DNA of 64,000 nucleotides from a virus (Duplodnaviria; Heunggongvirae; Uroviricota; Caudoviricetes). Shown in pieces: positions 4,022 to 60,829 of the stretch (positions within the stretch are counted from its first letter, which is position 1; each line of letters opens with the position of its first letter). Below the pieces are notes generated by a model. That model saw only the letters and a program-made list of their open reading frames with translations, did no database searches and was not told the origin of the DNA. The position numbers and the translations under genes were made by a program. Where the stretch lies: the IMG/VR virus record IMGVR_UViG_2687453623_000004; one strand, given 5' to 3'.

Positions 4022-5227
4022 TTAAACCCCTTTGACAACGTCAGCGTTGACCTGTGGAACCCCGATTTCAGCGGCCAGATTCATGGCGGCTATTACCAGG
4101 TTACTGACGGCCAGCGGATACAGCAGGCTGACCATATTTTTACGGTGACTTCCCGGATTGCTCAGGCGGGCACGTATGGCATCCACTGCACCGGCGTCCA
4201 TAATGTCCGTCAGCTGTTTACCGGCCCGTTGCAGTTTGAACGTCAGAAATTCTTCAAGGTTATTGTCCAGAGGCAGAAGTTCGACCACCTCACAGCGCTG
4301 AACGACTTCACGGACTTCCATATTGCGTTCAGACAGTTTTGTCGCCAGTTCCGGCTGGCCAATCAGCACGATGGACAGCAGTTTTTTGAAACCGGACTCC
4401 AGCTCAAAAAAGCGTTTGAGGTGTTTCAGTGTCGGAATGGGCAGACTGTGGGCCTCCTCAATCACCAGAACGTGGCTGAACCCCGCCTGGCTGCTGTCTT
4501 TCAGGACGCGATGCAACTGGCGAAAACGGGCGTCCTGACTGCGTCTGATGCTTTCCAGTGGTGCGATGGTACTGATAATGGCTTCGGCAATAGCTGCTGC
4601 CTTCAGGGTTTTCCCTTTCACATCGTTGTCTTCCATAGCGATGATGTATGGCTCGATAACAATTACCGGCGCATTCTCGCGGTTGATACGTTCAGTCAGG
4701 TCGCGGCGCAGCGTGGATTTACCCGCACCGGACTCACCGATGACGGCCATAAACCCACCATGACGGGCTGTCTGGTACAGCGCCTCACGCACGTAGCGAA
4801 TGTCCGGGGTGGTGAACACATCATCAGAACCCTGCATGGCTTCGTCGGCGAACGGGTCACGGAAAAGACCAAACGCTTTTTTGGTTGCTGGAAATAACAC
4901 CTGTTTTTTGAGTAACATATTCTCTTCCTCACTGAGGCTCGTTTTATCTGTGGTACCCGCTGTACGGGGCGTGGCCGCGCCCTGTACAGCATCAAAACTC
5001 TTCGTTGTATCAATCCCCTGACTTTCCAGCCAGGACGCAAGACGCCGGCGCACTTCTCCGGGGCTGGTGCGGGGCCACGCGTTATGATTCACAATCTGGG
5101 CCAGCGTGGCCTCAGAAACATCGACAGCTCTCGCCACCACCGCCTGTGGAATACGGGCCTCTTTCAGTTGCTGCTTCAGTACCAGCATGTTTCCCTCCTC
5201 AGTTGCCGTTAACAATGCTGATAACAC
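4022..5227 (-). CDS. Transposition helper ATPase (Mu B / TniB-like P-loop protein)
   Basis: Walker A GESGAGKST; directly downstream of and overlapping the transposase gene; true start may be an internal Met. Confidence 0.7.
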   Translation of the reverse strand: MLSALLTATEEGNMLVLKQQLKEARIPQAVVARAVDVSEATLAQIVNHNAWPRTSPGEVRRRLASWLESQGIDTTKSFDAVQGAATPRTAGTTDKTSLSEEENMLLKKQVLFPATKKAFGLFRDPFADEAMQGSDDVFTTPDIRYVREALYQTARHGGFMAVIGESGAGKSTLRRDLTERINRENAPVIVIEPYIIAMEDNDVKGKTLKAAAIAEAIISTIAPLESIRRSQDARFRQLHRVLKDSSQAGFSHVLVIEEAHSLPIPTLKHLKRFFELESGFKKLLSIVLIGQPELATKLSERNMEVREVVQRCEVVELLPLDNNLEEFLTFKLQRAGKQLTDIMDAGAVDAIRARLSNPGSHRKNMVSLLYPLAVSNLVIAAMNLAAEIGVPQVNADVVKGV

Positions 5228-6968
5228 TGCTGCGGGCCGGTGTGGTCAGCGTGGCCATGACTTCATCCAGTGCGGCTTCCGGTACGCCGTCCGGGTACTG
5301 TGCCGTTAACTGGCGGTAATGTTCCGGCGTCCAGGTAAGGCCGTCGGCGCTGAACTTATCGCGCAGGGCTTTCGCGGCCTCCACATGAGTCATGGGACGT
5401 TGTTCAGTGCGCGGCCCGCGTACGTCAGAGGCCTGACCACGCTTCGGCATATAGGCCGGAAGTGTGGTGTCGTCGATATGTTTATACGGGTCAAGCCGCC
5501 CGCCGAACGGCAGCGCCTTCGCCTTGCGTGCGGCGGCTGCATCTGCGGCGTTGTCTGTACCGGTAACCAGCGCTTCGGTTTCTTTTGCCGCCATCTGTGC
5601 CGGGGTTTCCGGCAGGGCTTTGTAACTTTCGCCAAATACCGCCGCGCCTTCAGCAAAGCCAAACTCGTTCTTTCTGACCTCTTCGACCAGGAAGAACGTC
5701 TCGTGGCCGTCCTCACCGGTCAGAACCACCTGTGCCACATCGCTGCGCCATGGGTTACGGGTAATCATCAGTTTTTCACCAACCAGTACGCCCGGTACCG
5801 TTGATACGTCAAATTCAGTGCCCCGGAACGAGACACGAAGTTTTGGCGTGACTTTGCGGAGTTCTGGTGCCGCCACAGCCAGTTCACGACATACCTCAAC
5901 GGAAGGCGCTTTTTTCAGCTGCTCAGCAGTAATCTTCAGCCAGATATCCGTGCGGGTTTTACCGTGGCGGCTGTGAACAGCCGTGGCGTTAAAGTGGCTG
6001 CGCCATTTCGCGGCCAGCGCGTTGAGTTCTTCCAGACTGTGAACCGGCCGGAACTTCAGACCCGGCTCCAGCTTGCGTTCGATAATGTCACGCGCCTTTT
6101 CCACCTGTCCGGTGGCGCGGGCGTTATGCGGCTTGTGCGCTATCAGGTCGATGCCCAGTGAGCGGCACATGTTTTTCGTCATACCCGCGGTGTTTGCCGA
6201 GCCGGGGTCGAGATAGAGTATTTTCGGCACGCCGTGCAGCACGTCTGCGCCGCCACGCTCCTGCATGGCGTTGATAAGCACAGAACACAGGTTCTCACCT
6301 GATTCCGCGCCCGTCACATACTCAACGTAAATCCAGCCGCTGGCATGGTCGGTAATCTCGTAACTCCACACGCGGTCACTGGCGATACGGGCAAGGTTAG
6401 CGGGCTTGTTCTTGTAGAACTTCGCGCTGTCCATCACCTGCAGCCCTTTATGTCCATTGCTCAGGTAGTAAAGCGTGCAGAGTGAGGCGTCAATCTGCCA
6501 GACATGATTGGGATGCAGACTGGCCACTTCGGTATGTGGTGCAGGGGCATCCAGTTGTTCCGGGTGCAGGCCATAGTTACGCAGAGCACGGCTGATGGCA
6601 TCTTCAGACAACGGGAAAAACTCACTGGTGGTTTCATCTGTTCTGCCTGCGGTGATAAAGCCGTTAGCCCGCAGGGTTTCCACTGCATCTGCGATGGAAT
6701 AGAGACGCTTACCGTTCTTGCGGGTGGCCTCACGCAGTGTGGCAGATATCAGCGCGGCTTCGTCGCGGGTCAGGGCGCTGCGCCCGGCATCGGCGCGTTT
6801 TTTGCGTTTATCAGTCACAGATACCTCCTTCAGCCTGCGCAGCAGAGTGGCGCGGGACATGCCAAGTTCAGCACAGGCAGCGTCGTATATTGCACCGCGT
6901 TTACCATGCCCCGCGTCACGTGCCGCGCGGGCTGTTTCAACCAGTTTTTCAGTCAGTGCCGGGGTCAT
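5199..6968 (-). CDS. DDE transposase of transposable phage (Mu A-like function)
   Basis: 589 aa; N-terminal HTH-like region, catalytic-core-like motifs (WQIDAS, YLDPGS); followed by the B-like ATPase. Confidence 0.8.
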   Translation of the reverse strand: MTPALTEKLVETARAARDAGHGKRGAIYDAACAELGMSRATLLRRLKEVSVTDKRKKRADAGRSALTRDEAALISATLREATRKNGKRLYSIADAVETLRANGFITAGRTDETTSEFFPLSEDAISRALRNYGLHPEQLDAPAPHTEVASLHPNHVWQIDASLCTLYYLSNGHKGLQVMDSAKFYKNKPANLARIASDRVWSYEITDHASGWIYVEYVTGAESGENLCSVLINAMQERGGADVLHGVPKILYLDPGSANTAGMTKNMCRSLGIDLIAHKPHNARATGQVEKARDIIERKLEPGLKFRPVHSLEELNALAAKWRSHFNATAVHSRHGKTRTDIWLKITAEQLKKAPSVEVCRELAVAAPELRKVTPKLRVSFRGTEFDVSTVPGVLVGEKLMITRNPWRSDVAQVVLTGEDGHETFFLVEEVRKNEFGFAEGAAVFGESYKALPETPAQMAAKETEALVTGTDNAADAAAARKAKALPFGGRLDPYKHIDDTTLPAYMPKRGQASDVRGPRTEQRPMTHVEAAKALRDKFSADGLTWTPEHYRQLTAQYPDGVPEAALDEVMATLTTPARSSVISIVNGN

Positions 6969-6983
6969 AGCTTGTCTTCCCTG

Positions 6984-7301
6984 TTATCCGATTCTGGCGG
7001 CAATTTTTCTGGCGAGGTCGCACAGTGTTTCGCCATCGCAGGTTTTCACCACGGTATTTACCGGTTGCGGTGCAACTACCGGGCGTAATGCTGACTGATT
7101 CTGCAGACGTCTTATCTGCTGCATCAGCATCACCTCCATCGTCAGTACAAACGGGTGCGTCTCCTGTGCGGGTACGCAGATTTCACCGGAAGGGGTCACC
7201 ACGCGGAAACCCTGCACCATCTCCGGCAGCAGATTACACAGTGCGTGCCCCAGTGCCTCCGGGCTGTCCATCAGGGTATTTTGTGTGTTATTCGTATTCA
7301 T
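6984..7301 (-). CDS. Hypothetical protein
   Basis: 105-aa ORF between the Ner side and the transposase. Confidence 0.35.
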   Translation of the reverse strand: MNTNNTQNTLMDSPEALGHALCNLLPEMVQGFRVVTPSGEICVPAQETHPFVLTMEVMLMQQIRRLQNQSALRPVVAPQPVNTVVKTCDGETLCDLARKIAARIG

Positions 7302-8221
7302 TACTGCATATCCTCCGGTCGGTTGATTTCAGGTTCCGGTTCGGTCAGCCAGGCGGGGGCATCGTTACCCGATGGAGCGGCCTCAAGGTCAAACGTCTCA
7401 CGTAATGCATGAACACTGCGTTCAATCTGGCAGACCAGACCGGCCATGAAATCTCTGGGGGTATCGATCATGTTTTTGGTGCAGTATTCACACAGGGTCT
7501 CAAAAACACTGGACAGCCGGACGGCGATAGCCGATTCGGCCTCAACCGCTAATGCCGTCACTTCCGCCCGCAATTTTTTCAGTTCTTCGTCTGGCGGCGG
7601 AGGTTGCAGGCGCGATTTCTTCTCCAGTTTTGTGGCCAGTTCGTTGATTTTTTCGTCCTTTCCGGCAAGCACCTGTTGCTGAGCTGCGTTGGTTTCGCGC
7701 GCTTCACGCAGGGCGGCCTTCAGTTCGCGGCTGGTCATGCGATCAATATCATCAAGCGTTGCACCGGCGACGGTTCCACCATCAGCTAATGCGTCGAGTT
7801 CTTCGTCATCCAGAACCATCAGTTCATATAACTTGGTTTTTCCCAAAACGCTCAGCGCTGAGCGTTTTGGCTGTTCATCTCCATTGCCGAGAAATTTCAC
7901 GCTGGCCTGCATCATGCGACGAGCTACCTGTGGTGCTAATCCGAGGTCGTTTTCCAGAATATTTGTGAAATCACCATGCGGTTCATTTTCTTTTAAGATG
8001 ATCAGCCGCTTACCCGCTTCCAACATAGATTCAGCACTCTGCGCCATATAAAAACGTGCTTCGTGAACGATGCGTTCACGTTCATAAGGCAGTCCATCAC
8101 CAAACTGCTGCATGATCTCCATGCGATGCTGTGTCATGGCATTCAGGCTGACGTTGAGATCATCCGACAGCGGTACATCGGCGTTCAGTTCAGTGTTAAT
8201 CGGTGATTTGGTACGTCCCAT
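7301..8221 (-). CDS. Hypothetical coiled-coil protein
   Basis: 306 aa with long charged helical stretch; no family recognised with certainty. Confidence 0.4.
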   Translation of the reverse strand: MGRTKSPINTELNADVPLSDDLNVSLNAMTQHRMEIMQQFGDGLPYERERIVHEARFYMAQSAESMLEAGKRLIILKENEPHGDFTNILENDLGLAPQVARRMMQASVKFLGNGDEQPKRSALSVLGKTKLYELMVLDDEELDALADGGTVAGATLDDIDRMTSRELKAALREARETNAAQQQVLAGKDEKINELATKLEKKSRLQPPPPDEELKKLRAEVTALAVEAESAIAVRLSSVFETLCEYCTKNMIDTPRDFMAGLVCQIERSVHALRETFDLEAAPSGNDAPAWLTEPEPEINRPEDMQ

Positions 8222-46681: not shown

Positions 46682-47845
46682 TCACTCATCACCTTCTGTT
46701 TCGTACTCCACATCAGAAAGCCTGACCTCAAGCTCTAAGGACGTCGTGAAGCCGCTATTATTCAGAAAATGTGTCACCTTAGTGATTGTCCAGTCCTGCT
46801 CGTCTATGACGCGCTTAAAGCCTGACACTTTGACCGGCGTTTCCGTGTAAATATCTGCCCGACCGGTAGCCAGACTGATGGAGAACTCCGCAACGCCCCG
46901 TTGCAGTTTATCCCACTTCGCCTGAGCGGCACGCATGGCCTGCGCTTTCGTGGCATATACCGTGGTCAGGGCAAAAACGTTGTCAGCCTCACCGGCCATG
47001 TATTCACCTTCACGCGCTTCCGGTACTTTAGGCGCTTTCTTCTGCCTGACCGGTTTCGCTTTCGGGTGCTCCAGTGCGCGCAGGTGTTTCTCTTTCTTTT
47101 TGCGTTTCAGTTTTACCTTCTGCTTTTGCGGTTTCGGGTCTTTGGTGTGTAACCACTTTGCCGTTACGCCTGTATAGGCTCCGCGGTCAGCAATCGCAAA
47201 ATGATGACGGTCGCCGTCGCTGCGGGTGATGGTAATCTGCGGGATTTTTTTACCGCTGGCCGTCACCCCCTGCCCCGCTTTGAGAAACAGCAGTTTTCCC
47301 ATTTTTACCGACACCTCACCGCCGTTGCGTTCAGCAAGACGGGTCAGGAATTTCGCATCAGACTCCTGCGACTGGTCGATGTGCGGGATTTTAATTCCTG
47401 CCAGTGACGGCGCGACACTGGCTTCCAGCCTGTTACGGGAGGCTATCGCCTCAACAATCGCACCGAGCGTGGTGTCATGCCATGAGCCTTCACGGCGGGA
47501 ATTGAGCGTCCCGCGAAAATCTGCACTCCGGGCGCGGATGGTGACCACATCCGGTGCGCCCCGGTGTTCAACCTCATCAACGGTGAATTTCCCTTTGCAT
47601 ACCAGGGCAAAACCTTTCCAGCCGATATACACCGTCAGGACAGCGCCACGAACCGGCAGCTCGACCTGCCCGTCGGCATCGTTCAGTTCAATATCAAGCT
47701 GGTCAGCCTCAAAGCCCCGGTTATCCGTCAGGGTCATGCTCATCAGACGGTCGCTGATATTGCCGGTAATATCCCTGCTGTCGAGCACCAGCATGTAATC
47801 CGGCGTCAGCGTACTGCCTGCATCAAATGTCAGTGCATCCAGCAT
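46682..47845 (-). CDS. D: Tail protein D
   Basis: 387 aa, same size and position as P2 gpD. Confidence 0.8.
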   Translation of the reverse strand: MLDALTFDAGSTLTPDYMLVLDSRDITGNISDRLMSMTLTDNRGFEADQLDIELNDADGQVELPVRGAVLTVYIGWKGFALVCKGKFTVDEVEHRGAPDVVTIRARSADFRGTLNSRREGSWHDTTLGAIVEAIASRNRLEASVAPSLAGIKIPHIDQSQESDAKFLTRLAERNGGEVSVKMGKLLFLKAGQGVTASGKKIPQITITRSDGDRHHFAIADRGAYTGVTAKWLHTKDPKPQKQKVKLKRKKKEKHLRALEHPKAKPVRQKKAPKVPEAREGEYMAGEADNVFALTTVYATKAQAMRAAQAKWDKLQRGVAEFSISLATGRADIYTETPVKVSGFKRVIDEQDWTITKVTHFLNNSGFTTSLELEVRLSDVEYETEGDE

Positions 47846-48324
47846 TATCCCGCCCCCGTCATACCCGTGAATTTAGTCGCCATACTGCCAGCCTTACCGA
47901 TGAGCGATTCCGCCTGTTTACCGATATCGCCATAAAGCGCGGCCAGTGATTCATCAACGCGGGTGAGCGACAGCGTAAAATCAATTTTCCGGGGTGTGCC
48001 GTCTGCAAAGAAAATACTCCCTGTTTCACTCACCTTGCTGATGACATACATGCCGTAAATCATGCCGGTGCCATCCAGCAACGGCCACGCCCGCCCCTCC
48101 TCTGCCATCAGCCTGAGCGTGGTCATCGTCAGCTTGCCGCCGGTCAGTTCGGGATAAAGCACACCGGCAAGCGTCATGTTTTCCTCACCCACACCGAGAA
48201 ACTGGTAGGCATCCCGTTTACCGATACGGGAATTTGACGGCCAGCGATAATCTGATTCACGCTGCATGGTCTGGTGTGGCAGCGTCTGGCGCATAAAAAC
48301 AAACATACCTAACGCGAGCATCAT
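47845..48324 (-). CDS. U: Tail protein U
   Basis: 159 aa. Confidence 0.8.
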   Translation of the reverse strand: MMLALGMFVFMRQTLPHQTMQRESDYRWPSNSRIGKRDAYQFLGVGEENMTLAGVLYPELTGGKLTMTTLRLMAEEGRAWPLLDGTGMIYGMYVISKVSETGSIFFADGTPRKIDFTLSLTRVDESLAALYGDIGKQAESLIGKAGSMATKFTGMTGAG

Positions 48325-48338
48325 TTTTCGTCACCTCC

Positions 48339-50785
48339 TTAACCGTCATGCATCATGCTGGCACGGGCGCGCGCTCGTTTATCCCGCTCGTATTTTTCGA
48401 GCGCATCCTGTAACTGGCGGTCGAGCTGTGTCCCCGGCGCAGTACCACCCGTCAGGCTGATGTGATATTCGTTTTTACTCTGGTCTACATAAGAGCGGCC
48501 AGCCGGTGCCGTGACCGGCTGATAAGCCTGATAACCTGCATAAGAGCTGGTCGCCGGAATATAACCACCGCTGCCATACGTGGCGGCTTGAGTTCTGGCG
48601 GCGGTCTGGTCAAGTGTGTCTGACTCTTTGTTGATAACACCGAGTTTTTCCAGTACCCAGTCAATACCACTGCGCAGTTTGTTGAACGCATTAAGCGGCA
48701 GCATCAGCGCGTCAGCCAGTGCCTGCCCGAACATGACGCCCGTGTCACGGCAACGGTTCAGGGTGTCCTGGGTGGCTTTGACCGGGGCAATCAGGTTTTT
48801 AAACCACTGCCACGCGGCCTGTAACTTTTCACCCAGCCAGTCAAACACCGGTTTAAGTGGCGTGAACAGTTCCCCCACCGGCGTAAATGCCGCTTTCAGC
48901 CCTTCCACCACACCGCCAAAGAATGCGCTGACAGGCTCCCAGTATTTACGGATAAGCAACGCCCCGGCGACAATGGCGGCCACCACGGCCACAACCGGCC
49001 AGCTAATCGCCCCGATGGCGGTCATAACAGCACTGCCAACCGTCGTGAAGATTGCCCCCATTGCGCCTGCTGCCGCGATGATGGCATTGATGCCGGTGAT
49101 AACCGGCCAGGCTACGAGGCCAATGGCACCGATGACACCAATCAGTGCCAGTGCACCACCGACAATGATGCCGATGGTTGACGCCAGTGATTTGTTTTTC
49201 TGGATCCAGCCGTCGAGTTTTAACACATACTTTGTGGCCGTCTGCGTGAGATTACGCAGTGCGCCTTCCTGCTGGTCAAACAGGTCAGTCCCCACCGCCT
49301 CATAAGCGGACTGAAACTCCTTAAAGTCACCGCCGAGGTTATCCTGCATGATTTTAACCAGCTCTTCCGTTTTACCGTCCGAGGCTTTCAGCGTGGCGGT
49401 CAGCTTATCCAGTTTTCCGCTTGCTGCCGCTGCCAGTAAAACGTTCGCTGATTTCAGGGCTTCCTCACCAAAAATGGTTTTAAGGTATTCCCCCTTCTGA
49501 GACGTTCCCAGCTTGTGTTTATCAAAGCTGGCCTGAATCTCTTTCAGAATGGTGAACAACGGACGCATATTTCCCTTTTTGTCCGAGGTTTTAACGCCAA
49601 GCTCTTTGAGTGCATCCCATGCTTTTCCAGTCGGTGCCTGTAATCGGGTGACAACGGCACTACTACCCGTACCCGCCATTGACCCCCTGATGTTATTGTC
49701 ATGCAGCACACCTGTCATGGCCGCTGCCTGCTCAAGACTTACGCCTGCCGTCCTCGCAACCGGCCCGAGGTAAGTCAGTGCATCACTGAGTCCCTGAAAA
49801 TCAGCGCCGACTTATTCATCGTTGCAGACAACACGTCGCCCACATGGCTGACATCATCATTTGACAGTTGAAAGGATGCCTTAGTCCCCAGCAACAGTTG
49901 CGCGTTTTCTTCCATCGACCGCTGATTCGCCAGTGCCATATTCAGCGTGACCGGCGTTGCCGCCTGAATAGCCGCAGCATCTCCACCCGCTTTCGCAATG
50001 ATAATCTGCGCACCGGCCGCATCATCCGCCGAGGCGGCTGTGTTGTCACCGAGCTGGCGCGCCTGTTTGCGGAGTGCGGTCATTTCGGCGGAGTCTTTTG
50101 CCACTCCGAGCACGGCCTGCAATTCTGAGTTTTTCTGCGCAAACTCATAACCGGGCATCAGCAGCTTAACTCCGGCCATCGTTCCCGCAGCAGCAATCCC
50201 CGCACCGGCAGCGCCCACTGAGGCCATATTTCCGGCCAGTTCCTTTCCTGCCTGATAACGCTGTTTGACTGCGTTAAGTTTTGCCTGTTGTACACTGACA
50301 CGCGCCAGCGCGTCACGCTGACGGTTAAGCTGTGCGGTGGTTTCACTGATACGGTTTTTCAGTCCCTGCTCATCATGTGCAAGATTGCGGGTATTAATTC
50401 CCACAGCGGCCAGTTCTCGCTGCTGGCGTTTAACGGAATCTGTCAGGCGGTTATATTTCGCCTGTAAGTCCTCCGCCGCACGCTTTGCGGATTCCAGCAC
50501 TTTCGCCTGAGCACGGGTCGGACGTTCGGTGTTTTTAAACTGTGTGGCAAGGGCTTCGGCTTCCTGTCGAGCCTTTTCAAATGCATGACCAGTCACGGCG
50601 AGCTGTGCACTGGTCTTGCGGAATCCCTCAATACGGGATGCGTGACCGTTCAGCTCGCGCAGTGATTTTTGTGTTTCCCGGATATCCCCCGACAGCGACT
50701 TGCTCGCTGTACGGATGGATTTAAACGGGCGGGATGCCTGGTCAACAGCCCTGAGCAATACCTGTAATTTTACATTGTTACTCAT
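48339..50785 (-). pseudogene. T: Tail tape measure gene T, split by a frameshift into 336-aa and about 487-aa reading frames
   Basis: Two minus-strand ORFs in different frames overlapping only at 49778-49811, which contains an AAAA run; combined length about 812 aa versus roughly 815 aa for P2 T (from memory). Confidence 0.6.
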
Positions 50786-51205
50786 TCGTGTTTCCGCTTC
50801 GCCGGAGCGCCTTTTCGCGCCATGTGATGAGTTCGGTCAGGCTCATGGGATACAGTTCTGATGGCGGCCAGTGAAATATCACTGCCACATCCGCCATCAG
50901 GTCATCGACCGAGAGATTTTTCGGAAACGTTACTGCACCGAGTTCGGCGACAAAAAACCGACCACCTTACCGGCCAGCGCCACAAGGTCAGGCAGCTCCA
51001 GCGCGGCGACCTCCTGCTCAGTCAGCATCGGTGCCGTCATGCGCGGCAGCACTTTAATCAGTGCATCGACTTCGGAGTTCGCGACCGCAGCCAGACTGAC
51101 ACCGCGCAGCGTCCCGGCATTGGGTTTCATCAGCGTGACCTGTTCGATAACCTGCTCACCACGCTTGACCGGATTGTCCAGGGTAATCACATTTTCTTTG
51201 TTCAT
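50781..51205 (-). CDS. E+E' frameshift product (programmed -1 shift at the T-TTT-TTG slippery run)
   Basis: Minus-strand G GTT TTT TGT at 50951-50957; the -1 frame continues to a TAA overlapping the T start (AATGAGTAA). Confidence 0.55.
50930..51205 (-). CDS. E: Tail assembly chaperone E
   Basis: 91 aa; ends ...GKVVGFLSPNSVQ. Confidence 0.8.
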   Translation of the reverse strand: MNKENVITLDNPVKRGEQVIEQVTLMKPNAGTLRGVSLAAVANSEVDALIKVLPRMTAPMLTEQEVAALELPDLVALAGKVVGFLSPNSVQ

Positions 51206-51261
51206 GGTTTTCTCACTTCTGAATCAGGGTTAACCGGTCAGCCTGGCTGACCGGATGAAAA

Positions 51262-51780
51262 TCACAGGCCGATATTGCGGCGGTGTTGCTCCAGCCGGTC
51301 GACGCCGTTCACCTTCTCAATCATGTTGATGGTGTCGATTTCGACCAGCTCCTTACCGTCCATCGTCAGCCGGAAATAGGTGCAGACCACGGAGATTTTC
51401 GACTCGGTGTCTTCTCCCTGTTTACCCTCTCCGGTGTCGATTTCTTTCTGACGTCCACGCATGACCACTTCGACGGCCACCGTTTCGCCGGTATCGTCAC
51501 GCTGGTAAGAGCCTGCAAAACGAATCGGCACGGCATCCACGCCGGTTGCGGCGTAAAGCTCCCAGATAACCGAATCCGGGAAGCCCCCGAGCGACCACTC
51601 CATTGACAGCGCATCGTCATCAAGGCCGAGGTCTACCGGTGCGCTGCCGTTCATCCCCGCACCGCGATAGTTTTCGAGCTTACGGGTCAGTTTTGGCAGC
51701 GTGACGGACTTTGCAACGCCCTGATAGCTGTAGCCGTTCAGAAAGACGTTCATTAACTTGAGTTTGCGCGGCATTGCCAT
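51262..51780 (-). CDS. FII: Tail tube protein FII
   Basis: 172 aa. Confidence 0.85.
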   Translation of the reverse strand: MAMPRKLKLMNVFLNGYSYQGVAKSVTLPKLTRKLENYRGAGMNGSAPVDLGLDDDALSMEWSLGGFPDSVIWELYAATGVDAVPIRFAGSYQRDDTGETVAVEVVMRGRQKEIDTGEGKQGEDTESKISVVCTYFRLTMDGKELVEIDTINMIEKVNGVDRLEQHRRNIGL

Positions 51781-51792
51781 CGGTCAGGCTCC

Positions 51793-52983
51793 TTAATTGC
51801 TGTTAACCGAGGTGACCAGATTTGCCAGGTATTTATCGGTAATACGCTGGCGCAGGGTCAGGTTTTCAAGAGGAGGCACCGGTGTATAGTCGTAGTCGAT
51901 ATACAGTTTTCCGGCCTTGAGGGTTTCCGCATCGTTGGATTCTTCGCTGAACCAGCAGGTCGCATCCACGATATAGCCGTTTGTTTTCAGCTCACGGAAT
52001 TTGGCATTGATGCCGTCAACGATGTCGCGAATCAGCGTTGCGGTGATGGGCTTGTCCACCGCCCACATGTGCGCCTCAGCCATCGTGTCGGCAAGCACCT
52101 GCGCGGTGCGGGTGTAGTTTTCAAAGAGGAACAGCGGGTCATCAGAGCAGGTACGGTTACCCCAGAAGCGGAAACCGTCACGGCGAATCAGCGTTGTGAC
52201 GCCTGACTCGTTAAGCAGGTCAGCATCGGTACCGGACTCCTGCAAATCCCAGAATACAGAGGCGCTGATGCCGGTAACACCGCTTACCCCGACGTTGGAC
52301 AGCGTTTTATGCCAGCCCTGCTCCTGGTCGATTTTAGCACGCAGGCCCAGTGCACGAGCGGTGGCATACGCGGTGGCGGTGGTACTGGCGACCGTATCCC
52401 ATGCGAGGAAATCCGGCCAGATGACCATCAGCTCACGCTGGCTGAAATTCTGGCGGTAGGCTTTCACCTCGGAAATGGTCTTACAGCCCCATGCGCTGAT
52501 ATACCCGAAAGCGCGCAGCTTCTGACAGACTGATGCCAGTGCGACGGCAACCTCTTTGGTGTCCAGTCCCGGCACACCAAGAATACGCGGTTTAACACCG
52601 GTTACCGACTCCGCCGCCAGCAGGGCTTTCAGTCCGGTGTACTGACCGTTTTCGTCGGTGGTGCCGATGATATTGGAAATGGTCTGCGCAAGTTTCGTTT
52701 CTTCGTCGTCGCCGGTGCCGTCTTCCACACGCACGACAACGGTGACCGGTTTTGACTGGTCGGCGATGGCCTGCAACGATGCCGCCAGCGTGCCTTTTTT
52801 ACCGGCCTTTGCAATTGCGCTCTGCACATTGGTTATCAGCACCGGTTTATTGAGGGGGAAGGTTTCCGCATCCGCATCGCTGGCCGTGCAGACCATGCCG
52901 ACAATGGCCGTGGATACGGTGGAAATGACGCGGGTGCCGTCGTTAATCTCCAGCACCTGCACGCCGTGATGATAGTCACTCAT
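51793..52983 (-). CDS. FI: Tail sheath protein FI
   Basis: 396 aa. Confidence 0.85.
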   Translation of the reverse strand: MSDYHHGVQVLEINDGTRVISTVSTAIVGMVCTASDADAETFPLNKPVLITNVQSAIAKAGKKGTLAASLQAIADQSKPVTVVVRVEDGTGDDEETKLAQTISNIIGTTDENGQYTGLKALLAAESVTGVKPRILGVPGLDTKEVAVALASVCQKLRAFGYISAWGCKTISEVKAYRQNFSQRELMVIWPDFLAWDTVASTTATAYATARALGLRAKIDQEQGWHKTLSNVGVSGVTGISASVFWDLQESGTDADLLNESGVTTLIRRDGFRFWGNRTCSDDPLFLFENYTRTAQVLADTMAEAHMWAVDKPITATLIRDIVDGINAKFRELKTNGYIVDATCWFSEESNDAETLKAGKLYIDYDYTPVPPLENLTLRQRITDKYLANLVTSVNSN

Positions 52984-53070
52984 CCGTTTAACTCCGTGGT
53001 TAATGGGTGCAACTATTTTCTGTTGTGCAGAGCATGAGACGCTATTTGACCTGGCTGGCCAGTGGATGAA

Positions 53071-53106
53071 ACAACAAATAAAGAAAAGGCGGGCAATCAG
53101 CCCGCC
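53071..53106 (-). terminator. Rho-independent terminator upstream of FI, terminating the cargo gene transcript
   Basis: GGCGGGC-AATCA-GCCCGCC perfect stem followed by TTTTCTTTATTT on the minus strand. Confidence 0.5.
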
Positions 53107-53294
53107 TGCCTTGATTTGTTCTCACTCAGCTTCCAACTGACAAGTTACATAATCAAAACGCTATTAAATCTGACAGTCTGCTTTGAGCGATGAACGGACA
53201 TAACGACTCACTAATGACTAATTTGCTAACCGCTTCCGACCCAAAACTGTCGGTTGCATGATAATTAATCCAGCAAGCAAATTCATAGTCATTG

Positions 53295-53771
53295 CTATAT
53301 GTTACTGGGATTATTAAAAGGGATAATACTGGCCAATCCGTCATCAACATCAAGACCATAGGTAACCGCTATTTCTGCCAGAGAGTTACCACACTTTTGT
53401 CGCAGTTTAAAAAGGGCTCGCTCAAGTATGGATATTTGAACAGGATGATCAAGTTGGATAAAGTGAGGGGAGCCAACGCTGTCACAGAATTCTTGGCATG
53501 CTTTTCTCATTTTCCTTAATTGTTTTGCTAAATGTGAATCGCTCGGCAAACCTTGTAGGACTTTAGTCAATTCAGATCTAATGTTGATAACACTCGAAGT
53601 GCAATGACTAGCACCCTCCATGTCGACAGGATTGAAAAGAACGCGCTTGTCCTCAAGAAAAATGACGATCTTCTTCGCTTCGTCAGTTTCTATTATTGGA
53701 GCATTCCACTGAATCCCGAATATGGGACAGCTAAGGCCAGTAATATTTTTATAGATTTGTTCAAATTTCAA
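53295..53771 (-). CDS. Cargo protein of unknown function (158 aa) in the G/FI hotspot
   Basis: AT-rich; apparent TTG start 7 nt after a strong AAGGAG; own terminator; no family recognised. Start codon position by my count is 53770-53772 (one-nt discrepancy with the track). Confidence 0.5.
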   Translation of the reverse strand: MKFEQIYKNITGLSCPIFGIQWNAPIIETDEAKKIVIFLEDKRVLFNPVDMEGASHCTSSVINIRSELTKVLQGLPSDSHLAKQLRKMRKACQEFCDSVGSPHFIQLDHPVQISILERALFKLRQKCGNSLAEIAVTYGLDVDDGLASIIPFNNPSNI

Positions 53772-54030
53772 AAGTCACTCCTTGGATGGACTCTGAGCAT
53801 ATAAAACGCCATACTGATAAACGGACTCGGTTCAAGTAATCTGTTAGATAGCATAACTCGGAACCACTGTAAAAATAGTTGTTAACATACCTAAAAGTGA
53901 CAGCGGAGGCAAGATTCCCTCAGCCGGAGCGATAAATTAGGCATAAGTTATACACACATTAGTAATAATCACTAAAGATATTCTAATTTTTTATGCCGAC
54001 TTAATATGATTTCCCGTCAATCAGGTTAGC

Positions 54031-54054
54031 GTCCGCTCCTGGCACAAAGCGGAC
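54031..54054 (+). repeat. 24-bp hairpin repeat copy 1 (GTCCGCT-CCTGGCACAA-AGCGGAC)
   Basis: Perfect 7-bp stem; second copy at 54954-54977 with 21/24 identity. Confidence 0.6.
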
Positions 54055-54159
54055 GAGGTAACTGAGCTAAAGGTCCGCTGTGAGCGAAAAGTGGACATTA
54101 GAGTTACAAAAGTAAGTTTAAATCATCCAAAATATTACAATATCCTTATCTATCTGATA

Positions 54160-54189
54160 TTGTTATGATAAAAAGTTCCTGAATATAAT
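54160..54189 (+). promoter_or_regulatory. Sigma70-like promoter for the membrane-protein gene
   Basis: TTGTTA, 18-bp spacer, TATAAT; AGGTGG ribosome-binding site 9 nt before ATG 54212. Confidence 0.45.
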
Positions 54190-54211
54190 CGATAGTAGGT
54201 GGTTATTTTCC

Positions 54212-54589
54212 ATGAAATCAATTTTAGAGGTTTTTACTCAAGGAAATACTAAAGAAAAACTGGCTGTTATCGCTGATCTCACAACCATTGCGGGAATATC
54301 GATAGCAACTATTATTGCTGGTTTGTTAACCCTAGTTGCAAAAACAGATAAACTAGATGTTGGAAATCTGTTTGGAGTTGTCATAATATCTCTGCTCGGA
54401 TTGGCTGGTGTTTGCTGTTTTATGGCCCTATTTATTTGGGTTATAACCCAAATGTCTAAACCATGGGGAACACCTCGGGGGATTCAGTCCTTAGTTAAGT
54501 GTGCTATTTCCCTTATCTTTATCTGTATTTTTTTGCTGGCTGTCTTTACATTTTATGAGGTTATTTCTTCGATGAGAATACTCTATTGA
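54212..54589 (+). CDS. Small membrane protein (125 aa, three predicted helices), unknown function
   Basis: AT-rich; hydrophobic stretches IAGISIATIIAGLLTLVA, VVIISLLGLAGVCCFMALFIWVI, AISLIFICIFLLAVFTF; own promoter and terminator. Confidence 0.5.
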   Translation: MKSILEVFTQGNTKEKLAVIADLTTIAGISIATIIAGLLTLVAKTDKLDVGNLFGVVIISLLGLAGVCCFMALFIWVITQMSKPWGTPRGIQSLVKCAISLIFICIFLLAVFTFYEVISSMRILY

Positions 54590-54614
54590 ATATAAAATCA
54601 GCTCTCATAACTTA

Positions 54615-54643
54615 AAAGAGGCCTTCTATAAGGTCTCTTTTAA
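54615..54643 (+). terminator. Rho-independent terminator after the membrane-protein gene
   Basis: AAAGAGGCCTT-CTAT-AAGGTCTCTTT followed by TAATTG. Confidence 0.5.
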
Positions 54644-54953
54644 TTGAATTACCATCCTATTAATCCAGAGAATCTTTATCATCACAAAATAACAAACATT
54701 GGAGATAATTAATAAACTAATCATCCTCAAGATCATCTTTATCTTTACAAAGCGAGTGTCAGTATTCATCCTAACATCAAGTGCAGAATGGAGTATTTTA
54801 TGTATCTTCATGCCGCTTGCACGCTTTATCTCGTTTTTTGTAGGTGGTGTACTATCTCTAAATGACCATTTATATGGTGTAAGACTACTGACTTTAGAGG
54901 GCTATGATCTACATAGTTCTTCTAACCATTATTCTCCAAATAAACTTTACAAC

Positions 54954-54977
54954 GTCCGCTCCTGGCACGGAACGGAC
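54954..54977 (+). repeat. 24-bp hairpin repeat copy 2 (GTCCGCT-CCTGGCACGG-AACGGAC)
   Basis: Same orientation as copy 1; an AATCAGG-like flank lies on the opposite side (CCTGATTAGG). Confidence 0.6.
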
Positions 54978-55642
54978 AGCCTGATTAGGTTTTACTCTGT
55001 GCCATAGATGAGTAATCTCATACCAGAGCTAATACGATTTATTGCGGCATTTCTGGCCATTCTATATCCGGAGCATTTTCCGGCTGAACGCGATTCAGTA
55101 GCACACGGTATTTTTTCCAGTGTGTCAGGCTTAACTTTTCTTCCTCGGTAGCCATATCTAAATCGACAGCATCCTGCAGAGTGCCAATAATTTCACCGGC
55201 ATATGCAATCTGCTCTTTCTTCTGAGACTCCGCCGCTCTGACAAGTGCATCATGCTCTGCATTCTCATCATTCACCCACGCATTTCCGTTCCATTTCTGA
55301 TAATCCCCATCCGGGGAAATGGCTGTCACGTCTGGAGGTAATGCACCAAGTTCAGAAATATAAATGGCTGCTCCCGTTTTCGTTTCGTAGACAGTCTTTC
55401 CGCGATGATCTTCCATCAACTCCCATTTCATTTCATCTGCATTGAAAACGGCTGCATAACCAGCAGGAATATCAGGTGGTGCAATATCTGTACTGTTTGC
55501 AGGCAGACCTGTATGCGGCGGAATATATGCATCACTTTCGCCAATAAACTCATTGGTTGCGTATTACCGTGAAGGAGATCGGTGAGTAACATCGATGGAG
55601 ATCGGTTCGTGTCACTTTCACAGAACCGTTTTTAAATTACCT

Positions 55643-56392
55643 TCACTGATCTCCTTCGGTCAACGGAGATTGTATTTTCCGCATTGATTCTCCTTTAAGT
55701 TCGATCTTGATACTGCCATGAACCAGTCGATCTAGGATGGCATCCGCATGTGTGGAGTCTCCGATCATTTTGTACCAGTTTTCCACCGGCAACTGGCTCA
55801 CTACGATGATTGAGCCTCGTTGGTACATCAGATCCACTATTTCCAGCAGGTCGCTACGCTGTTCTGATGAGAGAGGTTCCAGCCCCCAGTCATCCAGAAG
55901 CAGCAGATCGCTATTATTCAGCCTGGTCAAAAGTTTGCTGTATCTTCCATCAGCATGCCCCTGATAGCACTGTTCCATCAGCGCTTTAAGGCGATAATAG
56001 TAGACCTTGTATCCCTGTCGGCAGGCATTATGACCAAGTGCACATGCCAGGAACGTTTTACCGCTGCCGGTGGCCCCGGTCAGTAAAATATTTTGTTTCA
56101 GGGTTAACCAGTTTCCCTGACTGAGTGAACGGATGAGGGCCCTGTCCAGCCCTCTATTGTTACGATAATCCAGCTTTGATAACTCAGCATTAAGTCTGAA
56201 CCGTGCATGTTTGATCAGACGCTCTGCCTTCCTGTTTTCACGGCAGGTTAGTTCTTCTGCTGTCAGTAATGACAGGCGTTCTTCGAAGCCCAGCTCCTGG
56301 TATGTGCCCGGTTGAGCAAGTTGCTTTTTAAGCGCATCACGGAAGCCGGTGAGTTTAAGTGCGGTCAGTTGTTCGTAAAGATGATTCATCAT
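55643..56392 (-). CDS. istB: IS21-family helper ATPase IstB
   Basis: 249 aa; Walker A LTGATGSGKTF. Confidence 0.85.
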   Translation of the reverse strand: MMNHLYEQLTALKLTGFRDALKKQLAQPGTYQELGFEERLSLLTAEELTCRENRKAERLIKHARFRLNAELSKLDYRNNRGLDRALIRSLSQGNWLTLKQNILLTGATGSGKTFLACALGHNACRQGYKVYYYRLKALMEQCYQGHADGRYSKLLTRLNNSDLLLLDDWGLEPLSSEQRSDLLEIVDLMYQRGSIIVVSQLPVENWYKMIGDSTHADAILDRLVHGSIKIELKGESMRKIQSPLTEGDQ

Positions 56393-56403
56393 TGGATCCC
56401 GTA

Positions 56404-57945
56404 TCAGTGGTAATACTCACTGCCGCGTACGTTTTCGTGTTCCATCGTGGATAACAGATCTGGTTTTGGATCCTGAACAGGTTGTTTATCCAGACCTTTT
56501 TCCAGGATCGATTTAATACCTGACAGACGCCATACCTTTGTTTTCAGAGCTCTTGCACATGCTGCATTAAGTCTGGCTTTACTGTATTTTTTATGAAGGT
56601 TCAGGAGTCCAAGGCAGAAGCGATAGCTTTGTTCCGGATGTGGACGAGAGTTCAGTATATGAAGCACATAACTATGAGTTTCACTGCCTATGTGCCCCGC
56701 CCATTCCAGAAGACGCTCTGGCGTCCAGGTGGCATGCTGTCGATGAGCTTCAGGCATGTGCTCGTTGCGGGTACTGTAGCCATAAGTACGCTTGCGCGGG
56801 TGCACAGCAACCTCCTGCCCCTGATTGAAGAGTCTTACCAGTTCTCCGGAGATCCATGCTTCCAGTTGCTGGCCTAACAGCGAACATGGAACCGAGTAGT
56901 AATGTTTGTCGATTTCCACGTGGTAATCGGCATGAACTCTGACTTTCTTCACCAGGGTGTAACTGTAACTGGCTTCAGGAAGAGGCTTCAGTGCGGGTTT
57001 ATCAAGCTGGATGAAGAGTTCTGCACGTGAATAACCCAACTTCTGCATTATTTTGTTATTCAGTCTTTCCAGCAACTCCCGAATGCGCTGATTAAGCGAT
57101 GCAAGGCTGTAGAAGATCTCATGCCTGATTCGGGCCATGATCCAGCGTTCAACAACCTGAACGCCAACTTCAGCTTTGGCTTTATCTTTCGGTTTACGTG
57201 GCCGCGCAGGCAAAACTGCGACATTATAATGCTCAAGCATCTGCTGGTAGGTAGGGTTAACGTCAGGATCATACTTACATGCCCTGGATGTGGCGCTTTT
57301 CAGATTGTCCGGAACAACAAGTTCAGGAACGCCACCCAACCACTGGAAGCAGCGAACATGACTCATCACCCAGTCTTCAAGCTGCTGAGACCAGGTGGCC
57401 TCTGCCCATGTGTAACTTGATGCCCCGAGAACAGCTACGATGACCTGAGCAGTTCTTATTTCTCCGGTCTCAGGGTCGGTAACGCCAACGGTAGGTCCAC
57501 AGTAATCAACGAAAAGTTTTTCGCCAGCTTTATGTACCTGACGCATTGATGGTGAAGTGGTTTTGAGCCATTCACGGTACATCCGGCAGTAATGGTTATA
57601 GCTGTAAAAACCGCCTGGATTACGCTCACAGTATTCTTCCCAGAGTAGCTGCAGCGTCACGCATTTATTACGCAGTTCCCGGTGTACTGTAGCCCAGTCA
57701 GGCAGAGAGTGCTTCTTCATCTTAACCTGGGTCTGAAGGAACGCATGTTTTAGTTTTGTATCATCCCATCCTGTAGGTAAGGGCCACTGCTTTATGCCAA
57801 GTTGAGCCGCCCGATTAGCATATCTGGATACAACGGAAGGGGAGATTGCAAGACTACGACCAATTTGTCGATGGCTGAGTCCAACACCGTATTTAAGCCT
57901 AAGAATTTCTTTAAGTTTTCTCATAGAAATTGGAACTGTTGGCAT
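56404..57945 (-). CDS. istA: IS21-family transposase IstA
   Basis: 513 aa; N-terminal HTH; upstream of istB. Confidence 0.85.
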   Translation of the reverse strand: MPTVPISMRKLKEILRLKYGVGLSHRQIGRSLAISPSVVSRYANRAAQLGIKQWPLPTGWDDTKLKHAFLQTQVKMKKHSLPDWATVHRELRNKCVTLQLLWEEYCERNPGGFYSYNHYCRMYREWLKTTSPSMRQVHKAGEKLFVDYCGPTVGVTDPETGEIRTAQVIVAVLGASSYTWAEATWSQQLEDWVMSHVRCFQWLGGVPELVVPDNLKSATSRACKYDPDVNPTYQQMLEHYNVAVLPARPRKPKDKAKAEVGVQVVERWIMARIRHEIFYSLASLNQRIRELLERLNNKIMQKLGYSRAELFIQLDKPALKPLPEASYSYTLVKKVRVHADYHVEIDKHYYSVPCSLLGQQLEAWISGELVRLFNQGQEVAVHPRKRTYGYSTRNEHMPEAHRQHATWTPERLLEWAGHIGSETHSYVLHILNSRPHPEQSYRFCLGLLNLHKKYSKARLNAACARALKTKVWRLSGIKSILEKGLDKQPVQDPKPDLLSTMEHENVRGSEYYH

Positions 57946-58204
57946 AGGTATCCTTTACCGGAATGGCAAAAGATACAGATCAACACACCTGTGAAGTTCC
58001 AATAACATTGATGGAGATCACTGAATAACAAAATGAGTCAAAAGTGATCTCCATCGATGTTATTCAGCGATCTGTTCAAATGTTATTACCCGATCTCGAT
58101 GGAAGTTATTGAGTGATCTCCTTTCATGAAAATACGCACATTGGTTCCATCAAGTAAATTGAAAACGCGGATAGTTTGTGCTTCTGCACTCATTCTGAAA
58201 GCCA

Positions 58205-60829
58205 TTATGCAAGCCTCACAATATAGTTAAATGCGATGTTTTTGACGGTGTTTTCTGTATTACCTGTAGCATTAACGGTAATAGAGTGCCCGTGTGAGCC
58301 AATAGCAACCGTGTGTGAATGTGCACCAATACCAACCGTATGATTATGTGCACCAATATCTACCGTGTGGGCATGATTCCCGGCAGCTCCTGATGTGCCA
58401 TTAAACGATGGGTTGTCAAAGCCTGTTTTACCGGTTTCACCATTAGTATTGGCATTCCCTCTGTAAATGGTATGTGTATGGTTACCAGTGGTATTAGTGG
58501 TTTTTGTTCCGTAGTTAAACGTACTGACTGTCTTCGTCCCGTAATCAAACGAACTGGTTGTTTTCGTTCCCAAATCCGTATTTGACGCACTGGCACTGTG
58601 AGTATGCGATTTAATCCCGTCCTGTTCCTGTGACAATACGGCACGCCCACTGGCGGGTTTGCCCTTGATTGTCCAGCCGCGCATATCAGGAATAACACCA
58701 GAAGGATAGGCTATAGCCAGTTTCGGATATGCTGCCTTATCAAACGTCTGCCCCTGCATGATTGCATAGCCTGCAGGTGGTGTATCTGATGGCCACGGCA
58801 GCGGAACACCAGGCGGAAACGCTTCAATATTTGCCGAGCCGTCAAATTTTACGCCGTTAATTGTCCTTGCCGTTTTCAGCTTTGTTGCTGTAGCCGCATT
58901 GCCGGACAGTTCACCAGAAAGGCCTGCACTGAATGTCTGTTTTGCCTCCCATGTCTGGGCTTCGTCGATAATTGGTAGCCGACGAATATTGAAGCTACGC
59001 TCCCCAGGATTGCCATATAAGCGGACTGTAAAAAAACGATAGTTGGTTTTGTTTGAAGTGCTGCGCCATACCTGCATTGAACGGGCGACACCTCCGCCTT
59101 CACTGGGGCCAACAGTGATATTTATCAGGTTAGTATCAATGACGCCCCATTCCATCCCATCGGGAATATTGGTCATATCTGAAAGCCTGACAGTTATCAT
59201 GCTGCCCGGTATAAAGTCGTAGGTCTGCCAGTCCAGACTGGATAACCTGTCGGTAACACCGCCGACACCTAATTTAGTGAGTAATGATTTTGAGTTGTAT
59301 ACTTCCGCCCATTCCCCCCAGTCAGTTTCACCGCTGGCGCGGGTTCGCTGAAATGTCCGGTTTTTATAGGCATCCGTTGCTGAAACAGTCGTATATGTCT
59401 GGATATACGATTCAATATCACAACGTTTTTTCACCTCAACTATTGAGCCAACAGCAAGATCTTTAGAGTCGGTGACAGGTGCATTTGTGGCCTGTTTCGT
59501 GACGCTATAAATACCAGGCTTTAAAAGGTCATCAAGATCCCCTGAATAAGTCCATCCCGTGGACTGATACCCAACAGCAATCCAGTCCTCCCATTGTGGA
59601 TTTTCTGCATCCCATGAGGCTGTCAGTCCGCGAATGTACATAGTCCCACTACGGGTGGTATAACGTTGCATCCTCCCATACAGACCGCCTTCAAAGACTT
59701 CCAGAATACCCTGTCCAAAACTCCCTTCCTCCGGGAAATGACGGTCAAATGAGGCTATTGATGTACTGCTATTGCGCCATATTCCCAGGTGTTCCGCACC
59801 ACCTAAAGAATTCAGGTCAATTGACGTGCTTAATGGGCGAGTCCCGCTTGTAATAGCTCTCCATGCACTCCATACAGGACTGACAGGGTTCCATTCTGCA
59901 TCAAGCATCCGAATGTAAATATTACCGGTTCGGGTGGTGTAGCGTTGTGTGCAGTGAAAGCGACCAGCATTGAATACTTCCAGAACCCCATTGCCTTTAT
60001 CTTCAGGGTAACCAGACTCTGGTTTTGCAGTGGATTGTGACGGACATGACCACGTTCCAAGATATTTTTCTTCTGGGCCATAGGAATCAAGATTGTCAGT
60101 GGTTGGAATCATTCCATTGTGTTTCATAAACGTCAGGCTGGTAACGCCAATATTGTCCAGAAAAGCGCCCTTATCTGGAATATCGCCACCGTTCTGGTCT
60201 TTCTGCAGACGTTTCTCAGCATTGTCATAGGCTGCTTTTACTGCCTTTGGCGTTGCTGCCAGCTTTTCACTGGTGCTGTTTGTTGCACTGCTTAACTGAG
60301 TAAAACCTTTTTCTGTCAGCGTGGCGTCAGGATGGCGGCGGGACTGCTCATGCTCTGCGATTTTGTCATCGACGTAATCCTGCGTCGCCATCACTGTGCT
60401 GGCATCAATACTCAGCTCAACAGACGCCACGTTACTGACAATAATGACCATGCGGCAGGTCTGCGCACGCCCGGAGCCTTCAGCCAGTTCAGGCTTATAG
60501 CTTTCTGCCATGTTAGCGACCGCAATCAGTGTTCCGGCATCATCATACAGACCAAGTTCACGCATCCAGAAGCCGCCCACTTCTGGCGGTACAACCAGTT
60601 CAGCCACGATATAGTTTTTATTCTTGTTATCCACGCTGACTTTATTCAGAGCGTGACGCCAGACCTCATGCACCAGTTTCGTCTGACCGGCATCCGGCAC
60701 CGGCAATTTGCCATTACCGTCACCCACGGCCATTGCAGACAGGTTTACTTTTTTCCCGCCGGGGACAGTGGCGGCTGCCAGCTTTGCGGCTCCGGCAGTA
60801 GTGATAACGGTTTTAAATTTCGTGCTCAT
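58205..60829 (-). CDS. H: Tail fibre protein H (mosaic, longer than P2 H)
   Basis: 874 aa; P2-like N-terminus; C-terminal region with GAHxHTV repeats and ...[12 protein letters not shown] end shared with the Mu-like fibre cassettes. Confidence 0.8.

Follow-up and report, generated by a model that had tools for sequence, protein, structure and literature searches.

Does a pair of neighbouring cargo genes in a prophage represent one defence system, or two genes that came to lie in the same place? The question is raised by a 64,000-nucleotide (nt) stretch of viral DNA, IMG/VR record IMGVR_UViG_2687453623_000004 (hereafter the window, at its full length), which holds a P2-like prophage of the class Caudoviricetes. 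Between the sheath gene FI (51793-52983; Pfam Phage_sheath_1) and the C-terminal fragment of a tail-fibre assembly gene (55039-55431; Caudo_TAP) lies a slot (52984-55038) with two divergent open reading frames (ORFs), A on the minus strand and B on the plus strand. The initial annotation of this DNA, which placed the slot correctly between these two flanks, proposed an undescribed two-gene module in which a small sensor acts together with a membrane effector. We find that each gene has a mobile cassette of its own. Our favoured explanation, to which we give a probability of roughly 0.55, is that the slot carries two independent cargo genes in such cassettes, ORF A being a stand-alone DUF6650 defence gene and ORF B a separate membrane protein.

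The cassettes are delimited by a 24-nt motif, GTCCGCT-N10-AGCGGAC, of which there are four copies in the slot with two types of spacer (A and B); in the whole window, with up to two mismatches allowed, there are seven matches against 0.26 expected. The copy nearest FI is site B1 (GTCTGCTTTGAGCGATGAACGGAC; 53176-53199, plus strand), a degenerate, imperfect inverted repeat that forms the FI-side end of cassette 1. It is followed on the same strand by A1 (GTCCGCTCCTGGCACAAAGCGGAC; 54031-54054), a perfect 7-10-7 inverted repeat at which cassette 1 ends, by B2 (GTCCGCTGTGAGCGAAAAGTGGAC; 54073-54096), at which cassette 2 starts, and by A2 (GTCCGCTCCTGGCACGGAACGGAC; 54954-54977), the end of cassette 2 on the side of gene G. 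Cassette 1 (53176-54054, from B1 to A1) contains ORF A, cassette 2 (54073-54977, from B2 to A2) contains ORF B, and A1, 18 nt and B2 together make up an inter-cassette junction module (54031-54096). In all P2-type slots sampled, the slot starts on the FI side with a B site, at the position of B1, while the cargo varies; on the side of gene G, phage P2 and other P2-like slots have an A-type site equivalent to A2. B1 and A2, the outer pair, lie beside the P2 backbone and are more degenerate than the inner sites A1 and B2, and when B1 is folded it gives no stable hairpin (-1.2 kcal/mol, no better than shuffled sequences). Both observations would fit outer sites that arose by recombination with a backbone site and are recognized as double-stranded DNA rather than as hairpins.

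The survey of the same slot in other P2-like prophages that the initial annotation called for did bring out cargo that differs from slot to slot, but it also separated the two genes. In KSC207, ORF B is present alone, between one B and one A site, and the extra segment of the window relative to KSC207 spans B1 to A1. This segment (about 880 bp, with ORF A) recurs in three other, unrelated Escherichia coli contexts (L071, L072, and L073), namely the end of an e14-like prophage, an island rich in insertion sequences (ISs), and an island in which the adjoining genes are annotated as ATP-dependent enzymes, a helicase and a nuclease; in these comparisons the similarity is bounded by the sites, beginning at B1 and stopping at A1. 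Among 5,426 complete E. coli genomes, ORF A occurs in 28 and ORF B in 64, with both in 18; 46 of the genomes with ORF B lack ORF A, and 10 of those with ORF A lack ORF B. The entire 2,055-nt slot stretch is found in 18 of the 5,426, in copies that are at least 99.9% identical. What lies at the P2 Z/fun recombination point is an array of two mobile cassettes that are independent of each other; each is delimited by a B and an A site, and each, singly or as a block of two, is present in other backbones. The adjacency of ORFs A and B is a matter of insertion history, not of partnership.

The same picture emerges from the relatives of ORF A (53295-53771, minus strand; 158 amino acids (aa), TTG start; WP_001576672.1). 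The initial annotation recognized neither protein; ORF A, however, matches Pfam DUF6650 (PF20355) with 60.7 bits against a gathering cut-off of 27 (E 2e-16, residues 9-101), is already named "DUF6650 family protein" in RefSeq, and also matches phrog_29952. PF20355 was present in 100 of 100 ORF A homologues. To see which genes keep company with this family, one genome per species was taken, giving 65 loci from many phyla, and no conserved adjacent gene was found across them. An all-against-all BLAST of the neighbours at 58 loci showed no family in common beyond near-identical genomes, a TIR did not recur among 59 adjacent genes scanned with Pfam and PADLOC, and none of the TIR families was hit by more than one of 49 same-strand neighbours, with one or two single-match TIRs possible outside the 25 families listed. 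A 305-aa neighbour seen in three genomes was considered as a partner and rejected, as two of the three share one island and the gene in the third is unrelated.

How does a two-gene system, in which the DUF6650 sensor activates the membrane effector, fare against this evidence? The two genes are adjacent and divergent in 18 genomes, and fusions give a precedent for a membrane link, given that some DUF6650 proteins of the ThsG type (introduced below) carry N-terminal membrane helices. The pair has also been found outside P2: on the lambdoid contig L094 (IMGVR_UViG_2740892219_000010) both cassettes are adjacent and 98% identical from site to site, which counts against independence. Transfer as a block between the outer sites explains this joint occurrence, although it leaves the pairing with a probability above zero. 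Against a partnership stand the separate B...A boundaries of each gene with a junction module between them, the 46 genomes with ORF B alone and the 10 with ORF A alone, and the absence of a conserved neighbour of ORF A homologues at the 65 loci of other species. ORF B homologues without DUF6650 are found in Pectobacterium, KSC207, and S88; the ORF B profile shows no similarity to any DUF6650 protein, and the DUF6650 proteins retrieved have no hydrophobic extension. We consider a two-gene system quite improbable, and the reading of the slot as an undescribed two-gene module of sensor and membrane effector should be dropped.

Contig L094 is worth a closer look for its own sake. Its positions 4793-7858 hold a four-cassette array in a lambdoid-type prophage region with Peptidase_M78, ORF6N, and DnaB-like neighbours. 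The order is ORF B, DUF6650, a 250-aa unknown, and a LEM-3-like GIY-YIG protein, with b/a site pairs between them; the GIY-YIG gene also adjoins the DUF6650 cassette in E. coli EC01307 (L071).

What moves these cassettes? In phage P2 (AF063097), fun(Z) has an A-type site beside G and a B-like site beside the pF region; its being flanked by both site types agrees with the inverted repeats around fun(Z) described by Nilsson et al. (2004, Mol Biol Evol 21:1), as summarized in PMC8987985. The composition of the slot is that of foreign DNA as well, and here the initial annotation was right on both counts, the AT-richness and the horizontally acquired cargo at the Z/fun position: the G+C content is 0.383 (38%) in the slot and 0.556 (56%) across the tail genes at 46700-52983, and in 400-nt sliding windows it is 0.34-0.42 over 53000-55000 and 0.55-0.60 over the tail genes from FI to T. 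The A/B junction module is present in 915 of the 5,426 E. coli genomes. Its chromosomal copies adjoin a gene for a tyrosine recombinase of about 200 aa, consisting of the catalytic domain only, which is found in 885 of the 5,426 genomes and scores 55 bits against a XerA/integron-integrase model with a cut-off of 220. The cassettes diverge from the recombinase gene, and in L085 a B-like site lies 40 nt upstream of it; recombinase-linked arrays were located at L084 4004-5083, L085 1419-5241, L086 1857-4066, and L088 4687-7118. In strain S88, the recombinase lies within the G/FI slot itself, beside the ORF B homologue. No recombinase gene of this type was found in the window. Type-A sites are common in viral contigs, and a P2 sheath gene was nearby in just 23 of the 80 such contigs examined. 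From these associations, the 200-aa tyrosine recombinase is the likely mover of the cassettes. Beyond what PMC8987985 relates of Nilsson et al. 2004, we found no description of this recombinase-cassette platform in the literature. The initial annotation also held that this position is known for diverse anti-phage cargo, which overstates the case: Rousset et al. 2022 surveyed the P2 gpA-gpQ (old/tin) hotspot, not G/FI, and in the literature examined fun(Z) is the only gene with a reported phenotype at G/FI.

If the two genes are independent, each must be interpreted on its own. ORF A has no hydrophobic segment by hydropathy, and its AlphaFold2 model is a helical bundle (predicted local distance difference test score, pLDDT, 78) with generic structural matches only; a Foldseek search against viral models gave no match at E <= 0.001. 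NCBIfam scans and profile searches of Protein Data Bank (PDB) sequences returned nothing for either ORF A or ORF B. What makes ORF A a candidate defence gene is its family. Type VI Thoeris consists of a TIR protein and a DUF6650 effector, ThsG (bioRxiv 10.64898/2025.12.03.692087, a December 2025 preprint). According to the same preprint, the TIR protein makes 2' cyclic ADP-ribose (2'cADPR) upon infection, external 2'cADPR arrests cells that carry the system, and the model of ThsG shows a homo-hexameric tube whose protomers have basic pockets between them. DUF6650 is also among the domains newly implicated in defence by DefensePredictor (Science 2026; PMC13092281), the supplement of which gives a log-odds of 6.5 to WP_010377994.1, a DUF6650 protein of E. 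coli with 158 aa, under the label "Predicted novel defense gene". That protein shares its length and family with ORF A, a likeness of annotation and not of alignment, and it is found in the prediction tables only, not in the tables of tested systems. The initial proposal of a defence candidate thus survives for ORF A through its family (ThsG and the prediction for WP_010377994.1), but neither protein matches PADLOC.

The 158-aa form is conserved to an unusual degree. Its identity is 66-91% in Edwardsiella, Pectobacterium, Klebsiella, Achromobacter, Aeromonas, Shewanella, and Pseudomonas, and the clade extends over Enterobacterales, Aeromonas, Shewanella, Pseudomonas, Halomonadaceae, and Achromobacter with exactly constant length. 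Conservation so far above the norm for these taxa implies, as far as alignments can tell, either recent horizontal spread or very strong constraint on the whole protein. Nineteen alignment positions are invariant down to 38% identity, among them R43, R65, and R124, with R89 nearly invariant; these conserved arginines would be consistent with a phosphate-binding pocket. Distant DUF6650 homologues lie among restriction-modification, HEPN/Toprim, AbiE, DUF4238, and Mrr-type genes, and the 49 same-strand neighbours scanned include type I and II restriction-modification, HEPN/Toprim, AbiEii, and PADLOC candidate-system models. Individual contexts range from the early region of an Edwardsiella lambdoid prophage, through a Bacteroidota conjugative element with a DUF4238 gene on one side and an Mrr-type gene on the other, to a locus adjoining a giant methylase-helicase; one neighbourhood is purely metabolic.

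Taken together, these features make it most likely that ORF A is a stand-alone, ThsG-homologous DUF6650 gene that is expressed in the lysogen and acts against phages. By analogy with ThsG, the protein would form a ring-shaped homo-oligomer, which would bind a nucleotide-type signal in basic pockets between its protomers and, once bound, might arrest growth or phage development. There is no TIR gene in cis, and the trigger would, therefore, have to come from elsewhere; it could be supplied by a TIR protein encoded elsewhere in the genome, or by the infecting phage. In this connection, the annotation of strain LS4, which has an identical locus, shows no TIR in the tail-side prophage genes or in the remaining prophage. 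The second hotspot of the LS4 prophage, between the portal gene and replication gene A (L076 10390-13712, past the end of the window), has a cargo of four genes, one for a DUF2971 protein and the others for hypothetical proteins; one of the hypothetical genes likewise measures 477 nt, and none of the four is annotated as TIR.

A phage-borne DUF6650 protein without a TIR partner could also serve the opposite purpose. As an effector-less ThsG ligand-binding module it would sequester 2'cADPR and blunt type VI Thoeris, which is present in E. coli strains. The family is responsive to 2'cADPR, a signal for which phages have the sponges Tad1 and MoTad2 (bioRxiv 10.64898/2025.12.03.692087), and ORF A has no recognizable toxic or membrane domain, all of which speaks for such a sponge. 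One would then look for the gene in phages, but tblastn of ORFs A and B against 50,697 sequenced phage genomes gave no match, and in the 2.9 million contigs of IMG/VR there are only 10 loci of the ORF A family, three of them being this P2 slot and one more being the block of two cassettes on the lambdoid contig. Moreover, the relatives of ORF A sit in bacterial chromosomes amid restriction and other defence genes, DefensePredictor rates the 158-aa form as defence-like, and in P2 the slot is not an early-expressed region. An anti-defence sponge strikes us as rather improbable, and a ThsG-like arrest factor as the better account of ORF A; the two-gene system and the absence of any phage-related role are likewise less likely than such a factor.

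ORF B (54212-54589, plus strand; 125 aa; WP_001576671.1) is a different matter. It has three hydrophobic segments by hydropathy, and its AlphaFold2 model consists of three long helices (pLDDT 71); together with the ORF list, this bears out the initial description of a 158-aa soluble protein and a 125-aa three-helix membrane protein. ORF B matches phrog_4155 and has no family match in Pfam, NCBIfam, PADLOC, or PDB sequences. An exhaustive profile search of 1.84 billion representatives retrieved 56 clusters with lengths of about 120-130 aa, the exceptions being a few shorter fragments and one protein of 183 aa. The close relatives are from Enterobacterales and include one in a Pectobacterium integrative element. 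The most plausible role we can offer, a weak guess from the kind of protein and its location, is that of an inner-membrane protein unrelated to ORF A that acts alone at the envelope, for example, in superinfection exclusion.

Several points weigh against this assignment of functions, beyond the shared block on L094. The anti-phage role of ORF A is a prediction from sequence. ORF A is likened to ThsG through its Pfam family and the published description of ThsG, not through a direct sequence alignment. Some ThsG proteins have N-terminal membrane helices, and the toxicity of those without helices is left unexplained by the authors (bioRxiv 10.64898/2025.12.03.692087). PADLOC-DB 2.0 models gave 0 families for ORFs A and B even at E <= 1, and the DNA upstream of ORF A contains weak sigma-70-like matches only (8/12 in a relaxed promoter scan). 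The validated DefensePredictor case is a 299-aa SMEK protein, WP_087896215.1, which owes its DUF6650 label to HHpred at 0.88 (PMC13092281); hhalign of this protein with the ORF A clade gave a probability of 0.2%, and a Pfam hmmscan of it found SMEK_N only, with no DUF6650 at E <= 0.01. We give the SMEK case little weight because no link to the ORF A clade could be reproduced. Lastly, a distant relative of ORF B (L077 430-813; 127 aa, E 6e-20 to the family profile) lies on a metagenomic contig, flanked by an Iso_dh-family (isopropylmalate-dehydrogenase-like) gene and an aspartate-semialdehyde-dehydrogenase-like gene, which suggests that this membrane-protein family extends beyond mobile elements.

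Might it be, then, that neither gene has anything to do with phages? They could be selfish or neutral cassette cargo, or have another role in lysogenic conversion, for example, in envelope physiology. That curated defence models are unmatched, that the distant ORF B relative is in a housekeeping neighbourhood, and that one DUF6650 homologue is found among metabolic genes would all fit, and the 18 copies, at least 99.9% identical, would allow the locus to persist in a defective prophage by descent alone. The strong conservation of the 158-aa protein in sequence and length over distant genera argues otherwise, as do its repeated location in prophages, islands, and defence neighbourhoods and the tie of the DUF6650 family to Thoeris. 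We regard the absence of a phage-related role as unlikely.

The expression signals should be treated with caution. The initial annotation had given each gene its own. For ORF A, the Shine-Dalgarno sequence holds (AAGGAG at 53778-53783, 6 nt ahead of the TTG), and the upstream non-coding part of cassette 1 (53772-54030, minus strand) is conserved alongside the gene in other contexts, as seen in a four-context alignment. The terminator assigned to it does not belong to the cassette: the terminator scan does report a both-strand, G+C-rich hairpin or terminator-like site with a T-run at 53087-53107, but this is P2 backbone, present also in slots with other cargo and in P2. It lies in the intergenic DNA upstream of FI (52984-53175, minus strand), the late pF promoter region, which is about 90% identical in P2-like prophages with other cargo, and the counterpart of which in phage P2 (AF063097) is the segment holding the annotated pF activator site. 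For ORF B, there is a sigma-70-like promoter candidate (TTGTTA-18-TATAAT; 54160-54189, plus strand) with 10/12 matches, kept in KSC207, but promoter-like sites are no more frequent in the region than in shuffles (6 found, 6.6 expected). Its candidate terminator, an AT-rich inverted repeat (I5) followed by T-rich DNA (54612-54643, plus strand), gave no call in the terminator scan.

As to the gene content of the slot, many genera have homologues of both ORFs A and B, 40-95% identical and conserved in length, and we accept both as real genes because of this. Two further ORFs were rejected, one (54626-54811, minus strand) being broken by a 1-nt indel in KSC207 and the other (54699-55007, plus strand) crossing site A2. 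Rfam and tRNA scans of the slot gave no matches. The damage to the prophage that the initial annotation described is confirmed by RefSeq in the identical locus of LS4. The tape-measure gene T (48339-50785) is frameshifted there, and its sole open part in the window is a 336-aa N-terminal ORF (49775-50785). The IS21-family element ISEc12 (55643-57945; istB 55643-56389, istA 56404-57945) cuts the tail-fibre assembly gene into the C-terminal fragment and a 22-codon N-terminal remnant (window positions 55039-55557, 55643-57945, and 58140-58205, following the RefSeq annotation of LS4). With both lesions, the prophage is probably doubly defective for tail assembly.

Some of this was known before: the DUF6650 family, ThsG, and the Z/fun insertion point. 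What deserves modest follow-up is the orphan ThsG-like gene and the cassette platform. We tentatively put forward a broader possibility, that a stand-alone, ThsG-like DUF6650 protein may by itself make up a full immune module of one gene, or may receive a cyclic ADP-ribose signal made by a TIR protein elsewhere in the cell, and that it is carried by a little-studied, integron-like platform, a 200-aa recombinase with paired 24-nt sites, that moves small cargo among P2-like prophages, lambdoid prophages, and chromosomal arrays and is present in about one-sixth of E. coli genomes. As an orphan with no adjoining TIR gene in an E. coli lineage that has been studied well, ORF A lends itself to simple tests of ThsG toxicity, and it could show whether DUF6650 proteins act alone, sense signals made in trans, or sequester them. 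The platform can be mined for small, self-contained candidate defence genes, and its G/FI slot lies outside the published survey of P2 hotspots (Rousset et al. 2022). For those who scan genomes for new systems, we recommend caution: where a prophage hotspot is a cassette array, the fact that two genes lie side by side in it is weak evidence that they form a system.

It remains to compare the locus with systems that are already known. T4 Imm, P22 SieA, and HK97 gp15 are small inner-membrane superinfection-exclusion proteins. ORF B is like them in being a small, multi-helix membrane protein carried as prophage cargo behind a promoter-like site, but no sequence or family similarity was found, and the resemblance is one of kind only. 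ORF A belongs to the same Pfam family as ThsG (PF20355), is small and without a recognizable catalytic domain, and combines a predicted helical fold (with only generic matches) with conserved basic residues. With respect to type VI Thoeris as a system, ORF A provides the DUF6650 effector, carried on a prophage cassette, but there is no TIR gene (ThsB) beside it, and neither of the two ORFs of the slot has a TIR match.

The cassettes themselves call integrons to mind, with short, mostly single-gene units separated by imperfect inverted-repeat sites and, at related loci, arrays of one to four cassettes beside a divergently oriented tyrosine recombinase. The differences are substantial: the recombinase, at about 200 aa and with the catalytic domain only, scores far under the IntI/Xer cut-offs; the sites are 24 nt long, come in two kinds with a 7-10-7 layout, and are not attC; and the cassette genes face either way, ORF B having a promoter-like site of its own rather than being promoterless. 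The slot also resembles the fun(Z) locus of P2, with which it shares its place between G and FI, a content of AT-rich foreign DNA, and both types of 24-nt inverted repeat. Whereas fun(Z) is a single 528-aa protein that blocks T5, the slot described here holds two tandem cassettes with an internal A/B junction, and the cassette of ORF A, bounded by the same repeats, is also found in bacterial DNA outside P2 (L071, L072, and L073).

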